From: a virus | Taxonomy: Duplodnaviria; Caudoviricetes | Reading direction: 5' to 3' (one strand) | DNA length: 47,220 nucleotides | IMG/VR virus record: IMGVR_UViG_3300049846_000516 | Span: 1-47,220 of that record | Shown here: positions 5,875 through 27,055 of the stretch, in pieces | How positions within the stretch are numbered: the first letter of the stretch is position 1 | How the letters are laid out: each line of letters opens with the position of its first letter | Translations under genes and position numbers: made by a program | The notes under the pieces: generated by a model | Database searches by the model: none | Told to the model about the DNA's origin: nothing | The model's input: the letters and a program-made list of their open reading frames with translations, nothing else

Positions 5875-5975
5875 TGGAGTTCGGCATCGAGTACTGGAAG
5901 GCGATCGGGTTCTTCATGTACGTGTTCGCCTCTGTCGCTGCTGCAATCCTGATCCTTCGAAACAAGGAGGACTGA
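5874..5975 (+). CDS. Micro membrane protein (33 aa)
   Basis: Not in track. MEFGIEYWKAIGFFMYVFASVAAAILILRNKED, TGATG-coupled at both ends. Confidence 0.65.
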   Translation: MEFGIEYWKAIGFFMYVFASVAAAILILRNKED

Positions 5976-6169
5976 TGACCAAGCGGGACCTGATCTTCTT
6001 CGTCCTCGGCGTGTTGATCGCCCTGGTCCTCGGCATGAGCATGTTCGTTTACTCGGTCAACGAGGCAATCGAACGTGTGCATGCGGAGGGTACGTCGTAC
6101 GAGTTCGATGAAGCGTGCGACTACGGGTACGAGAACGACTGCCCAGGATTCGAGACCCATTATCACTGA
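5975..6169 (+). CDS. Small membrane-anchored protein (64 aa)
   Basis: MTKRDLIFFVLGVLIALVLG, AAGGAGG RBS. Confidence 0.7.
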   Translation: MTKRDLIFFVLGVLIALVLGMSMFVYSVNEAIERVHAEGTSYEFDEACDYGYENDCPGFETHYH

Positions 6170-6184
6170 AGCGGAGGTGTACCA

Positions 6185-6600
6185 TGTAACGCACTGAATG
6201 GGTGGGGTCCCTGCCGATAAGAGAGCCCCACCCCTTGAGTGCGTGACCCAGTGCCCACGTGACTCTAGCCTTGAGATAGCGGAGATAGTGTGACGTACTG
6301 TCCGAGCGTCAGATAGGCAGGGCTTAGAATGCCAGCGCCCCGAGTGAGGCACACTGGTTAAGAAGTCCAGACGTATGCGACTCGCTGTTGCAACCTAACA
6401 AATACCGGACTAAAGGAATCCGGGCGCTACCGTACATAGCGTGCTTAACATGCAGCGTGAATGCTCCCTGGCCCCATTGCTTACAGTCCTATTCGAAGGC
6501 CAAGATACAAGAGGACGAAGCGCAAGACCTGGTGTGCAGTGAGACACGGCATACCATGCACGATCCACTGTGCACGTAGGCTCATCCATTAATCCCCCCA
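6185..6600 (+). ncRNA. Candidate large structured ncRNA with pseudoknots
   Basis: About 450 nt gap with no RBS-supported ORF and many complementary segments (see findings). Strand assumed from flanking genes. Confidence 0.5.
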
Positions 6601-6618
6601 TCAAGACGTGGAGGTAAC

Positions 6619-8994
6619 ATGGCAAAGAGAGCCAGACGTCACGAGGTGGAGGACGACGAGCTACTAGGTGGCGCCCCGCCAAAGCGCCAACCGAAGAGGA
6701 AGTTCACGTCGAAACCGACGCCGATAGCTGCGGGTATCCTAGCCCCAGCAAACGCCACCCCGAAGGGCGGTAATGTCATCGCCCTTCATCAACCAACCAA
6801 GAAAACCAGGTTCGACTTCGAAAGCCAGACGGAGTATGAGATCTACCTGGAACTGCAGCGCATCAACAAGGAGGAACTGGAGCGGCAACTCCAGCACATG
6901 CGGGAGCTACGAGATGTTGGCCTGGTGGAGGTGACTCCGCCATCGGAACTACCCGAGCCATCAGCCTCGGCAAGCGCCGTAGTCAAGGATGAAAGCGCAG
7001 AACTCGCCGCATACCTAGCCCATCATAACCCGATGGGTGCAACCCGTAAGATCCACACGATCGAGGGCACAGTCGTACTCGATGACGGCACGGTGCTGAA
7101 GGTGAACAAGAGGCAGGACTTCTTGGATCCCGATGAACCGTACGTACCTTACGGTGGGTTCGAGGCCGATGGCCAAGTGTTTTGGCTGAGCGATGATCGC
7201 AAGCGTGATCGGAAGCAGGCCGAGCATTTCACTCGTCGATCCCAGAACTGCAGGCAGGAGCTGGGCAAGACGACCAAGACGGCGTATCTGAACGTAGCGA
7301 CGGTGCAAGAGTACCGCCCTGTGCCGGATGTGCTGTGGTTTGTCAACCATCCGGACGGCAAGAGCCGTCTGAGGGGAGACCTGAATCCGTACCCTCCGGG
7401 TCTCGTACCCGTAGGCGACGAGCTTGCCTCGTACATCCAGGATAAGAAGGAGCACGCTGCCAAGGTGGTAGCGTTCGAGAACTTCAACGTATGGTCCAAG
7501 CGGACCTGCGACAACATGCTCCGTGCTGCGGTAGATCCGCAAGAGGTGCGTGACTGGGTGTGCCGGAACATGCAAGCTCATGATTGGCGAGATCAAGCCA
7601 TCATGCAGGGACGGATCACAGGCAAGTGGGACGATCTACCATGGTCATATGCTGATGAGCTGCCCAAGGCGGCGGCGAATGACAGCGACCAGGTGTCCCC
7701 GGTCCAGCGTGGTGACCCCACAAGCGAGACCACTCCCGTGCTGCTACTACCAGCGCCCGCTCCGAAGGGCCAACTCGGTACCAGTCTGAAGCATATCGGC
7801 AGGCCGGATGCATTCGATTGGAAGTGGCCGAGCGCCAAGCAGGAGGAGGCAGACGATCTGCCGGAGCGCGAAGATACGGTGATCGTGGCCAGTGATGGCT
7901 TCGCTATCAGGGTAGGAGAGATCCATCCTGAACACCGTGAGCAGGTAGCTGAAGCTGTCTCTCGCATGCAACCTCGAGTCGTGCAGCACATGACAGAGGG
8001 CGAGGACATCGTAACACGTCTGAGCCTGGACCTCACAGACAGGCGTGCTGCTGCCACCCTGCGGATCTTGGAACGCCGGATCCGAGGGGACATTCAAGAG
8101 ATGTACGGACATCTCGAGAAGATCGTAGAGGCGCGGCTATTGGCCGAGGCTTACCAGAAGACTGGCGAGTTCAAGGTCGAGAACCGCAGTGAGTTCCTGG
8201 ATCAAGCTGGCGAGGGTGAAGTCATCACGCCGGTGCGATACCGCAAGCCTGCGCTCCTTGCGCAGTACTGGGCAGCGCCGAAGACGGCGAAGCCTCGGTT
8301 CAAGTCGATGATCGAGACGTCTGAGATACTCCAGATGGAGCGGGATGACCAACGGCATCGAGAACGGAAAGCCATGAAGCTCTGGCTAGCTGACCGTTCC
8401 AGGGTCAGGGCAGTAGAGCGGAAGGCTATCGCTCAGATGGGTGCACGTATCCGATTGCGTCGGAAGGCGGGCACTCTCGAAGTACTGGAGTCGAGGAGTT
8501 ACATCCTCAAGAAGCATGTCGAGGAGATGGAGCGGCTGGAGTCGCACCTCAACCAACAGCGTGCGATGCTCCCGCAAGAGCGGGTGTTCCTCCAGGACTT
8601 GGCTGCCGCTCAGTCTCCGCACACAGTGCGTGTGATGATGTGGCACCTCTCTCAATTCAACCGGCGGACGCTTGGCAAGGTCAAGCACGCCATGAAACTG
8701 GGCAAGAAAGAGCGGAAGACAGGAGTCTCTGCCCCCAGTACGGAGCCCGAGCGGCCCGTCAATGAGCCGGTAGTTACCATGCTCCCGGCCCGCACACCCC
8801 CATGCGATCAGGTGAAGGAACCTGAAAGCTCGCTGATACTCGTGCCCAAGGTGGAGGTGTACCAGTTCGAAGGGGACCCGCTTATCCAGTCAGTACGCCG
8901 GGCATACATCCAGCGGATGCGTGCCAGTGGGCAGTGGAAGGCGGAGGAGATCGATCTTGCTGACAAGAAGGTCTTCAGCAAGATGGTAGCGTAG
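6619..8994 (+). CDS. Large hypothetical protein (791 aa)
   Basis: GGAGGT RBS; long charged ORF; no catalytic motif recognised. Confidence 0.85.
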   Translation: MAKRARRHEVEDDELLGGAPPKRQPKRKFTSKPTPIAAGILAPANATPKGGNVIALHQPTKKTRFDFESQTEYEIYLELQRINKEELERQLQHMRELRDVGLVEVTPPSELPEPSASASAVVKDESAELAAYLAHHNPMGATRKIHTIEGTVVLDDGTVLKVNKRQDFLDPDEPYVPYGGFEADGQVFWLSDDRKRDRKQAEHFTRRSQNCRQELGKTTKTAYLNVATVQEYRPVPDVLWFVNHPDGKSRLRGDLNPYPPGLVPVGDELASYIQDKKEHAAKVVAFENFNVWSKRTCDNMLRAAVDPQEVRDWVCRNMQAHDWRDQAIMQGRITGKWDDLPWSYADELPKAAANDSDQVSPVQRGDPTSETTPVLLLPAPAPKGQLGTSLKHIGRPDAFDWKWPSAKQEEADDLPEREDTVIVASDGFAIRVGEIHPEHREQVAEAVSRMQPRVVQHMTEGEDIVTRLSLDLTDRRAAATLRILERRIRGDIQEMYGHLEKIVEARLLAEAYQKTGEFKVENRSEFLDQAGEGEVITPVRYRKPALLAQYWAAPKTAKPRFKSMIETSEILQMERDDQRHRERKAMKLWLADRSRVRAVERKAIAQMGARIRLRRKAGTLEVLESRSYILKKHVEEMERLESHLNQQRAMLPQERVFLQDLAAAQSPHTVRVMMWHLSQFNRRTLGKVKHAMKLGKKERKTGVSAPSTEPERPVNEPVVTMLPARTPPCDQVKEPESSLILVPKVEVYQFEGDPLIQSVRRAYIQRMRASGQWKAEEIDLADKKVFSKMVA

Positions 8995-12044: not shown

Positions 12045-12600
12045 CGAGTCGAGTCCAAGACAGGTAGCGTACATCAGTAGGTTCGAATCCTACACCGTGA
12101 GGTTGGTCCCGTGTACGTGTTCCTATGCAGGTTCGAATCCTGTCCGGCTTGTCGGCCGGTGGTGGAATGGGCATACACATCTTGAGACAAGCGCAGCATA
12201 CAGGTTGCCTAAAGCCCCTCATGCTGTGACTAAAGACTCGTTAATAAACGTGGTTCGTTGTTCGTTCTAATCGGTATCGGTTCAACTCCGACATGCATGG
12301 TGGCACTGGCCCCCCGCTGCATGGTATGTGTGAGTACGCACGGTAAGACAATGCCAACGGTAGCTTGCTATCTCACGGGATACTGCTGATGTTCAGCGCA
12401 TATAGACGAGGGACAACCGCGAAAGCGAGGTATGGGTGCAAGCCCCATTGTTCTTTGATGCAAGCGTTCCATCCTTCTATAAAGAATGGAGGGTGGGTGG
12501 TGCGCATATGGGTTCAACTCCCTGAGCGGTGCAAGGGACAAACAGGTCTGCGCAAACGGAATAGCTCGCCGTAAAGATAGTGCCCAGGCTGGGGTGAAGC
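12045..12600 (+). ncRNA. tRNA-like structured RNA region with five T-arm hairpins; no canonical tRNA
   Basis: T-arm-like hairpins at 12077, 12127, 12277, 12432, 12510; Leu/Ser-type D-arm at 12162. Confidence 0.6.
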
Positions 12601-12735
12601 AGCTCCCTTATTGTACGTCGAGGGTTAAGATGCGTACACAATGCCAATAACAATTGGCTGTATGGTATGCCTCCCTAATGCCACATTGTGTGGTATGCCA
12701 TGCAGCTCTGATGTCTCTCTCAACTGGAGAACATC

Positions 12736-24464: not shown

Positions 24465-24623
24465 TTACTTGCTGGTTCTTTTTGTATCTAGTTCAGGAAA
24501 GAATGGGACGAATTCCCATTTCTTCTGCTGACTCCTCGGAGTAGGAGTAGGAGGATTTTCTCGGAACCACTGTTCAGTGAATGCGCGCCGCTCTTCTGGA
24601 GTCATCTCAGAGATATGTTTCAT
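24465..24623 (-). CDS. Small protein (52 aa) coupled to the ART gene
   Basis: Not in track. MKHISEMTPEERRAFTEQWFRENPPTP..., ATGA overlap with the ART stop. Confidence 0.55.
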   Translation of the reverse strand: MKHISEMTPEERRAFTEQWFRENPPTPTPRSQQKKWEFVPFFPELDTKRTSK

Positions 24624-27055
24624 TCTGTTATCTCACTCATGTAGACAATCTTCCTATCGCCGTTGTCATCTATACCGTGGATTTTCCACTTAGACCCTGG
24701 CGGGTGGAGTACTTCATGCTCTCCGGGAAATTCAGTTAGAGACTCAATGTATCTACCAGTCTTAGTTTCGTGGATATGAAGTTGCAGATCTTCGTCCCTC
24801 GACTTTGTTGTAGAAGACAGCAGTCCAGGTTCTTGCCAAACTTTATTTTTAGACTTGAATGCATCCTTAAACATTTTAAAGAGATCCTTATTGTCGTAAT
24901 ACCTATTCAATCCTCTAACTAAGATCTTGCCAGGCTCTAGTTTATGTACTGGTAATTTTTTAAGGGCATCGCCGATTGCTTTCATGGTCGCCTCATGCCT
25001 TTCTTTTAGAAGCGGTTCGTCGAACATATTCTGATCAATCCACTTAGGATTCCTTGCGTACGAATTCAACCAACCATCGCCTGTGCGAGTATAAAAATTA
25101 ATAAGTAGATTTTCTAGATCTGTTAACCCAGCTTCTAAAGCCCTGGTTCTAAAACGAGCTATACTTTCGTCCAAGCGGTTGTGAGTGCCCCGCGTATACC
25201 ACATACTATCAAATAGGAATTTCTCATGAACGTTACGCAGATTCAATCTATCGTACGCTTCTATCGGAGCTCGTCTGTAATCTCCGGAGTATACATTAGT
25301 AGCGGCTAACACCTTATTAGGAGAAGTGGCCACATCCCTTGGGGTAGCATAATCCCAAATCTTTCCAGAGAATTCTTTGACCTTACTGTGCGTATGATGA
25401 TGCAAGACTGTAGTAATCACATCATTATTAACGCCGATCTTTTTACCAGCTTTAAAAATAGCTGCTGCCATATCTGGCATTTTCTCAATTAGCTTATTTA
25501 TGGCGTCATCTTGTGCGTAATGTATAGAACTATGAAGATCATTCCATAAAAGAGTAAGACTGTTCTTATTCGGAGGATCCGCTTTAAACACGCCGGGGTA
25601 ATCAGCTTCGGTAAGAGAAGCAATCTTCGCGTTAAACGTAGAAGTACTAGAGAGTACAGTAGTACCGCTACTCTGTGCTGGAGCAGCTGTCGGCTTCGGA
25701 GTGCTGGGCGGTGTTGAAAAATCCAGAGTGACTGGATCTATCTTTCCGTTCGGCGAAGCATTCAGATTATATAATTCAGTCAGCTGATCAGCATCTTCTG
25801 ATGTCTGCAATATATACTTTTTGCCAAACTCACTAACTATAGCGTCGGCTACTTTAGGGCTAAAGCCGGCATTAGTTAGTTTATTTAAAGCCTGTACTTT
25901 TTCGGACTGCTGTTGAAGCGCCTGCGGTGCTGCTTTCGGAACAAGTGTAGCATTCTGCTTTATCAAGTTAGCCGCATCACCAATACTAGTATTAGTGGCA
26001 CTAAAGAAGGTTTCAAGTACTGCCTTCTCTTGTTCTTGAATAGAATTGTTTAATGGATCTATATGGTGATACGCAGCGGTGGTATCCACATTCAGCATGA
26101 ATGCTTTTATTTCATCCTTCTCGAATCCTAATTCATAAAGCTTCTGTTTAAGAATTTTGTCCTTAAGTTCTTGACTTCCATTAGTAAACAATACTTTATT
26201 AGCAGCCAGTGTATATGAATCGGATAGGAGATACCCTTTACCTCTGTGTAGAGCAGAGGCTAAGTCTACAACTTCTTTTACCGTCTGAACTTTTAGCGGC
26301 CCTGGCTTGAATTGATTGAGTGCAGAGTAAAGAAAATGCGGAGCTACATTCGCCTGAGCAGCCACCTCGTCCATGATTTCTTGGGGGACTTTTGCGAACG
26401 CGACCATTTGCTCATTAAATGGAATAGGCGCAGTTAAATCTACAGCTGAAACATCTACTTTTGATTGCTTCAGCATAGGAATATAGTGCACGTTCAGATC
26501 TTTATGAGCCTTAGCCACCGCAGTTATATAGTCAGGATCGTCTGTTTCTTTTAATACTGGGAGTTTTCCATTCAGCATATACTGCTTGATGGAGTCAACC
26601 ACTACCTGGTCCGGGTACCCAGACGCTAGGTCTGCTTCAGCGGCTGAAATGATCCCCACTTCTGTATTAGGCGGCGCTGCCTTAAGCTCCTCAAGATCGT
26701 ACCAGTTATCACTCTTGAGTTTATACAAGTACGATACAGCATCGAACCCATCTAACTTAGCTATGTCAGCAACAAGATCATGTTCCTTCAAAGAAGGATT
26801 AGTCATGTAGAATTTTTGCTGCCCCTCCGCCATGCTTTGCGCAGTATCGGCATCCACGCCGTACTTAGCCATGAAGTTCTCGGTAGACTCAATCAGATTC
26901 TGGTTGAGCTTACCTGGAGTCCAGTACTTCTGAGCTTCAGTAGCTAGTTCGCGGTTCCATTCCATTATCCACTTAGCGTCAGCGGACATGCTGGCCGACT
27001 TAGCCAGATCGGGGACTACCTCGCCGAGGTTCTTTAAAAGGGTAGCTATTCCCAT
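24620..27055 (-). CDS. Probable internal virion protein with C-terminal ADP-ribosyltransferase domain
   Basis: YT...LN..R, LVRG, LLSSTT, EFPGEHEVL.PPGSKWKI: R-S-ExE signature of VIP2/C2/Alt-type ARTs. Confidence 0.85.
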   Translation of the reverse strand: MGIATLLKNLGEVVPDLAKSASMSADAKWIMEWNRELATEAQKYWTPGKLNQNLIESTENFMAKYGVDADTAQSMAEGQQKFYMTNPSLKEHDLVADIAKLDGFDAVSYLYKLKSDNWYDLEELKAAPPNTEVGIISAAEADLASGYPDQVVVDSIKQYMLNGKLPVLKETDDPDYITAVAKAHKDLNVHYIPMLKQSKVDVSAVDLTAPIPFNEQMVAFAKVPQEIMDEVAAQANVAPHFLYSALNQFKPGPLKVQTVKEVVDLASALHRGKGYLLSDSYTLAANKVLFTNGSQELKDKILKQKLYELGFEKDEIKAFMLNVDTTAAYHHIDPLNNSIQEQEKAVLETFFSATNTSIGDAANLIKQNATLVPKAAPQALQQQSEKVQALNKLTNAGFSPKVADAIVSEFGKKYILQTSEDADQLTELYNLNASPNGKIDPVTLDFSTPPSTPKPTAAPAQSSGTTVLSSTSTFNAKIASLTEADYPGVFKADPPNKNSLTLLWNDLHSSIHYAQDDAINKLIEKMPDMAAAIFKAGKKIGVNNDVITTVLHHHTHSKVKEFSGKIWDYATPRDVATSPNKVLAATNVYSGDYRRAPIEAYDRLNLRNVHEKFLFDSMWYTRGTHNRLDESIARFRTRALEAGLTDLENLLINFYTRTGDGWLNSYARNPKWIDQNMFDEPLLKERHEATMKAIGDALKKLPVHKLEPGKILVRGLNRYYDNKDLFKMFKDAFKSKNKVWQEPGLLSSTTKSRDEDLQLHIHETKTGRYIESLTEFPGEHEVLHPPGSKWKIHGIDDNGDRKIVYMSEITE

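Follow-up and report, generated by a model that had tools for sequence, protein, structure and literature searches.

The gap upstream of the gene of a 791-aa protein (P0001) in the window, which is the whole virus record of 47,220 nt of a SIO1-like phage, is non-coding and genuinely conserved, and two elements within it covary, namely a hairpin with a CACG/ACGA loop and the long helix of a pseudoknot. The preferred explanation, given a probability of about 0.4, is that this region encodes an undescribed structured RNA of ~340 nt (6245–6585), likely released from the + strand message by cutting at its boundary hairpins, and that P0001 would bind it at its invariant CACG/ACGA loop.

The + strand of the phage carries the primase-helicase, family A polymerase, exonuclease and endonuclease VII genes, and the − strand those of the terminase, portal, capsid and internal virion proteins; scans of 39 and 30 reading frames gave no RNA polymerase. 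Capsid identity to phage SIO1 and related phages, which form the family Zobellviridae, is 36–38%. An 811-aa protein of the virion region (24620–27055, − strand) has a C-terminal ADP-ribosyltransferase domain, like T4 Alt. At 1320–2130, an AT-rich tract with a TA repeat is followed by several direct repeats; this tract is likely a genome end or origin, and the record is therefore probably permuted. The gap (449 nt) runs from the stop at 6169 of a small membrane-protein gene to the ATG at 6619 of the P0001 gene (6619–8994, + strand), whose ribosome-binding site and start codon were located in the sequence at 6610–6621. The initial annotation considered such a long gap unusual. It is not unique, being one of two large gaps (among 11 + strand gaps of at least 120 nt between 2 and 22 kb, one exceeds it, with 465 nt by the same rule), but ordinary spacers measure 120–235 nt, against a gap length that stays near 400–450 nt across the loci. 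Neither a sigma-70 promoter nor a U-tract terminator on the + strand was found inside it. A second placement at 99% gave no variants and no loose ends, and runs X4 and X5 contained short pieces only, all outside the gap. None of the public runs listed as containing this DNA was of RNA, which has no bearing on its expression.

Upstream DNA was available from three relatives, L022, L056 (G001) and L003 (G002; 169 nt only), the first two being full-length, and every claim made here is limited by an alignment depth of three full loci, the window included, and one partial locus. The gap before the homologous large gene measures 436 nt in L022 and 398 nt in L056, i.e., it is kept in both relatives with full upstream DNA. 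The protein family comprises 26 representatives (E ≤ 0.001), among which gap and large gene stand together in the four of four loci that have upstream DNA. Homologues within the clade are 19–30% identical (P0016 and P0017 are 19% and 21% identical to P0001, respectively), and the L022 protein matches the family profile with an E value of 1.5e-152. The relatives are syntenic throughout the gene block, with the next genes in common, and G001 and G002 also have a 63–64% identical primase. In cultured phages, no counterpart turned up when the gaps of the window and L056 and a second RNA candidate described below were searched by blastn, or P0001, P0017 and P0021 by tblastn; three records matched by the L022 gap (40 nt, E = 0.04) were dropped as chance. 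Protein-motif scans returned true homologues in zero of one, two of three and one of at least 50 loci, and none in the genome-contig set, and primase scans returned 80 and 23 loci, none of them a new carrier of the gene. Coding of a small protein by the gap was rejected, as the loci have no reading frame in common and an indel separates L056 and L003.

One of the two elements lies at 6532–6575 (+ strand), close to the 3′ end of the gap. It consists of a hairpin with an internal loop of CACG and ACGA, two C-G pairs and a bulged A, and was found 74–128 nt upstream of the start codon in all four loci, where it covaries. The pair below the loop (−1) reads AU, CG, AU and CG across the four loci and the next one (−2) GC, CG, UA and UA; the inner pairs 2 and 3 are changed on both sides in the window, and G-U pairs occur in L022 and L003. 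A descriptor of this hairpin, written, as was that of the long helix, after all loci had been viewed, has a single match on both strands of the window taken together, at 6545; in 3.56 Mb of other loci it has four, of which three are the relatives. This background omits 28 of the 30 loci returned by a hairpin pattern scan, of which the other two were known relatives. Among the matches listed for those 28 loci, all are one coding region of an unrelated phage group, with no homologue of the protein found in them. A covariance model of the three relatives (R3) missed the element, since the window's hairpin was not among the 18 matches listed; R3 is dominated by a palindrome missing from the window's copy. 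This palindrome, GTACTAGTAC, forms the hairpin tip in L022 and L056 and not in the window or L003. It occurs in eight copies in the window (1690, 3232, 4198, 4249, 4306, 4389, 4443 and 9144) and in seven in L056; repeated through the early region, it is likely an operator or promoter element. A DNA operator was rejected as the main role of the hairpin, because the stem persists with G-U pairs where the GTACTAGTAC tip is absent, and the G-U pairs in the covarying elements point to RNA rather than DNA. The hairpin is likely a protein-binding site.

The second covarying element is the long helix of what the initial annotation had drawn as pseudoknot 2 (6334–6340/6422–6428, followed by AC; 6334–6430, + strand). 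It has seven perfect pairs in the window and seven in L056 with the same flanks, four of the seven being swapped on both sides, and six pairs in L022. Its span is 94 nt in the window and 103 nt in both relatives, and both flanks are kept in three of three loci. On its 5′ side stands the word AAUGCCA (6328–6334, + strand), the last A of which opens the helix and which recurs in spacers of the early-middle region. With this word fixed, after-the-fact chance values for the helix were 0.0009, 0.0008 and 0.029, and the long-helix descriptor, likewise an after-the-fact test, was met by 11, 5 and 4 of 20,000 full shuffles; the window has 15 further ATGCCA sites, of which just one carries such a helix, and only of 5 bp. 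Some variation was noted between the loci. In L022, the CACG hairpin uses the 3′ strand of the helix as its inner stem, which makes the two mutually exclusive, and a second AAUGCCA there starts another candidate helix, bulged and of 8 bp, with a sequence like that of the window's but no AC. The distance from the end of the helix to the CACG hairpin is 6 nt in L056 and about 115 nt in the window. The crossing helix (6248–6253/6352–6357; 6248–6357, + strand) keeps a CCAG/YTGG core in the same order in three of three full loci, with no two-sided change, and no counterpart of the hairpin nested inside the pseudoknot (6364–6411, + strand) was identified in the relatives. Taken together, pseudoknot 2 is likely present, as far as the compared sequences indicate, its main helix being better supported than the crossing one.

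The order of these strands as drawn in the window (crossing 5′, helix 5′, crossing 3′, nested hairpin, helix 3′) is that of P3 and P7, which cross in group I introns, where the guanosine site in P7 is conserved. A group I-like or self-cleaving ribozyme (the initial annotation had named a ribozyme of no particular family) would share with the gap this arrangement of two crossing helices and a nested hairpin, of which the crossing helix is weakly supported. This reading is nevertheless scarcely credible: no supporting motif and no Rfam match at E ≤ 10 were found, the helix sequence is free to change (four of seven pairs vary), in contrast to the conserved guanosine site, and there are no exons or interrupted gene, the gap being flanked by a stop and a start in three of three full loci.

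Considered in the single sequence, the stems are no more than chance would give. All the stems named in the initial annotation are present, i.e., 6189–6195/6238–6244, 6200–6207/6226–6233, 6209–6215/6316–6322, 6248–6253/6352–6357 and 6334–6340/6422–6428, as are the further stems 6291–6296/6306–6311, 6364–6368/6407–6411 and 6486–6490/6512–6516 and the last hairpin (6532–6575). Compared with 100 dinucleotide shuffles, the number of perfect helices in the gap is not above chance, with 13 of at least 6 bp (17.2 ± 4.5 in shuffles), four of at least 7 bp (4.2) and one of 8 bp (1.0). Folding of the whole region gave z values of −1.93 on the + strand (three of 100 shuffles as good) and −0.30 on the − strand, and among 80-nt windows within the gap the sole standout was over hairpin 1 (z = −3.4), the middle being flat. 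A flat middle is expected of a pseudoknotted core and equally of a plain spacer. The single sequence thus proves nothing.

Hairpin 1 itself (6186–6247, + strand), a long irregular stem after the upstream stop codon, is likely an ordinary processing or boundary hairpin that can be separated from the rest. After-stop hairpins at z ≤ −2 were found in 9 of 14 spacers of the window, three of five in G001 and four of four in L022, for stop positions that were hand-picked, two of them approximate. Strong irregular hairpins resembling RNase III processing sites stand directly after the window stops at 2782, 4094, 4777, 8994, 9778, 11530, 19818 and 21891. Runs X1 and X2, which may be the source samples, contain a second sequence at similar or greater depth. 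This sequence, a co-occurring related phage, shares the small membrane gene and hairpin 1 (5965–6242), with other DNA between and after; over the gap it matches 6173–6242 and is then unlike the window. The divergence of this sequence after 6242 and the generality of after-stop hairpins suggested that hairpin 1 is a separable module. RNase III sites of T7 early RNA are long irregular hairpins of 40–70 nt between genes of the early operon; they fit hairpin 1 and the 9 of 14 window spacers, but leave 340 nt behind hairpin 1 unexplained. Both crossings drawn in the initial annotation are in the sequence, and only pseudoknot 2 finds support in the relatives. The helix of pseudoknot 1 (6209–6215/6316–6322; 6209–6322, + strand) is present but gained no support from the comparison: its CCTGCC word is near the 5′ end of the gap in three of three loci, but in L022 and L056 it sits within a local hairpin stem, with five possible partners in the L022 gap and four in the L056 gap, and the hairpin 1 to which it belongs looks like an ordinary after-stop hairpin.

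One global fold across the clade was not shown by alignments, word chains or covariance models. Gap alignments were as good in one of 500 shuffles for L022 and L056 and in none of 500 for L056 and L003, whereas that of the window with L022 was borderline and not significant (49 of 500) and that with L056 was not significant (269 of 500); for three-way word chains, the number of shuffles that did as well varied with the settings, from 8 to 106 of 300. The models R1 and R2 were single-sequence models from L022 and, like R3, were built without the window. R1 and R2 did not pick out the window over 72 kb, and the matches listed from whole-window searches with all three included none at the gap's expected places except one by R1 on the wrong strand. 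In a 601-nt search with the L022 single-sequence models, the best + strand matches fell at the expected places, with only 4.8 and 3.8 bits (E values of 0.45 and 0.4, respectively). Smaller resemblances were noted as well. The region of a small hairpin with an AGCCT loop (6259–6276, + strand) has close matches to its words at the corresponding position of L022, for an overall alignment score that is not significant, and a stem with AGGCC in its loop (6486–6516, + strand), not picked out by R1, is matched by one in L022 that carries this loop word and immediately precedes the last hairpin there. A small GUAAA-loop hairpin with one swapped pair occurs in L022 (2056–2072) and L056 (4057–4073) and was not found in the window.

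These results are also those expected if the gap were a mosaic of short elements independent of one another (an after-stop hairpin, loops with AAUGCCA and one operator hairpin) with no global fold, the long-helix matches being post hoc chance. Helix counts at chance, the flat mid-gap profile, the lack of models or alignments that link the window to its relatives, the genome-wide occurrence of after-stop hairpins and of the AAYGCCA word, and an order of elements that varies between loci are all consistent with it. It is nonetheless considered unlikely, since the gap stays near 400–450 nt where ordinary spacers are of 120–235 nt, and since the constant flanks and 94–103-nt span of the long helix in three of three loci have little parallel at the 15 other ATGCCA sites.

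The main rival to an independent RNA is a cis-acting 5′ leader, in which a protein or ligand at the CACG/ACGA hairpin or pseudoknot would shift the pairings and thereby open or mask the ribosome-binding site. The gap is always on the sense strand and ends at the ribosome-binding site, a helix spanning the Shine-Dalgarno word is kept in L056 and L003, and the mutually exclusive pairings of L022 resemble a switch. Moreover, a perfect ribosome-binding site with its Shine-Dalgarno word, a 5-nt spacer and an ATG-TAA start-stop (6173–6189, + strand), which overlap the foot of hairpin 1, could let ribosomes melt this hairpin; they were found in the sequence of the window only, and the gaps of L022 and L056 do not begin with a counterpart. 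Against the leader, the predicted openness of the start (0.54 in the window and 0.42, 0.29 and 0.35 in the relatives) is within the range of 16 control starts (0.23–0.66) and is hardly altered by adding the whole gap, the + strand has no U-tract terminator in the gap, and 400 nt is long for a simple operator. Such a leader is considered possible, at a lower probability than the structured RNA.

No Rfam family matches the gap of the window or of its relatives, even at E = 10, in agreement with the initial proposal of a large structured non-coding RNA of no known family; that proposal, with the RNA tied in position to the 791-aa gene, is supported by this absence, by the gap kept in two of two relatives and by the two covarying elements. 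No description of the gap RNA was found in the literature at the level of listings and abstract openings; a paper that could catalogue it (PMC10690425) has none of six motifs in part of its supplements. By the comparisons given here, the gap RNA belongs to none of GOLLD, ROOL, group I introns, tmRNA and RNase P RNA. For tmRNA, ARAGORN gave no call, Rfam gave no match and the frame is broken between L056 and L003, and for RNase P RNA in its standard, non-permuted form there was no match at E ≤ 10. RNA genes directly before a partner protein gene are common, as in retron msr-msd, IscB omega RNA/HEARO and type III antitoxins. The gap RNA has a similar position, immediately before a protein gene and in the same orientation, but P0001 has no reverse transcriptase, HNH/RuvC or ToxN domain and the gap has no repeats.

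Closer in kind are GOLLD and ROOL, large phage-encoded multi-pseudoknot RNAs whose function is given as unknown in PMC12286853, which also reports cages that phage RNAs form through kissing loops and, in OLE, a kissing loop with a palindromic GGCC. The gap RNA is also large and phage-encoded, with a probable pseudoknot and loops that might kiss. It differs in having no match to the GOLLD and ROOL covariance models of Rfam, in its length (400–450 nt, compared with >800 nt for many GOLLD) and in its fixed position before one protein gene; furthermore, GOLLD and ROOL lie near tRNA islands, whereas the window has no tRNA genes (ARAGORN) and only T-loop-like words 5.5 kb downstream. A protein-free multimeric RNA of this type, held together by GCC/GGC loop contacts and perhaps including the second RNA at 12045–12735, would account for the complementary words seen in the loops of the gap loci (AUGCC, AGCCU, AGGCC and, in L056 and L003, AUGGC), for which the cages and the OLE loop offer a precedent, and for the AAYGCCA word in the second large covarying RNA. 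The missing Rfam match and tRNA genes, the absence of the AUGGC loop from the window and L022, and the fact that no loop-loop contact was shown to covary make it very unlikely.

The second non-coding RNA candidate, of about 600 nt, was observed at 12045–12735 in the window, 11143–11700 in L193 and 5581–6140 in L003. This gap has four T-loop-like words or hairpins and AAYGCCA loops. Between its counterparts in G001 and L003, identity is 75% over 608 nt, and 38 nt are common to them and the window at 87%; the two-sequence consensus has 146 pairs, of which 107 are unchanged, 13 show one-sided and 26 two-sided changes, by a method that favours such pairs. No Rfam match was above the cut-off. The second RNA is better supported than the gap RNA before the 791-aa gene, and the AAYGCCA word links the two. 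AAYGCCA or UAYGCCA occurs on the sense strand of the window at 6328, 9799, 12350, 12640, 12677, 12694 and 13234, mostly in spacers and often at hairpin tips. Non-coding occurrences amount to 7 of 11 in the window (15% non-coding), six of eight in G001 and five of five in L003, and to two of eight in L022, where the rule miscalled the gap itself as coding. The word is likely a binding site of one factor or a mimic of the tRNA end.

The partner proposed for the gap RNA offered few clues. P0001 had no Pfam, PHROG or PDB sequence match, no Atlas match and no fold match at E ≤ 0.001, and no RNA-binding fold was found, so that the family is one of no known domain or fold. Structure models were poor (pTM values of 0.21 and 0.28), and long helices and disorder are predicted; residues 501–700 are basic, with 44 K/R and 25 D/E. 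For the preferred structured RNA, it is suggested that the + strand operon, as the early-middle message, would transcribe the gap RNA, that RNase III-type processing at hairpin 1 may release it, as in T7 early RNA, and that the two crossing helices would then form a pseudoknotted core. P0001, basic and largely helical and disordered, may bind the invariant CACG/ACGA loop, and through this binding the protein could in addition repress its own translation; the resulting particle might, as a guess, be an RNA scaffold or decoy tying up a host factor early in infection. Against this pairing, synteny extends over the entire gene block, and P0001 is therefore not distinguished by its adjacency. An extension to a two-RNA system, in which a 400-nt pseudoknotted RNA with a 700–1000-aa protein of no known fold and a 600-nt T-loop-rich RNA would use AAYGCCA loops as mimics of tRNA 3′ ends or docks for one factor, and would thereby lure or trap proteins of host translation or defence at an early stage of infection, is regarded as quite unlikely.

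Few large structured phage RNAs are known, and in this small genome there is a second large one, whose pairs are strongly conserved. A new RNA family before one orphan protein gene would permit a direct test of the partner question, and if the region proves to be only a leader, it would still be a new regulatory element of a lytic phage.
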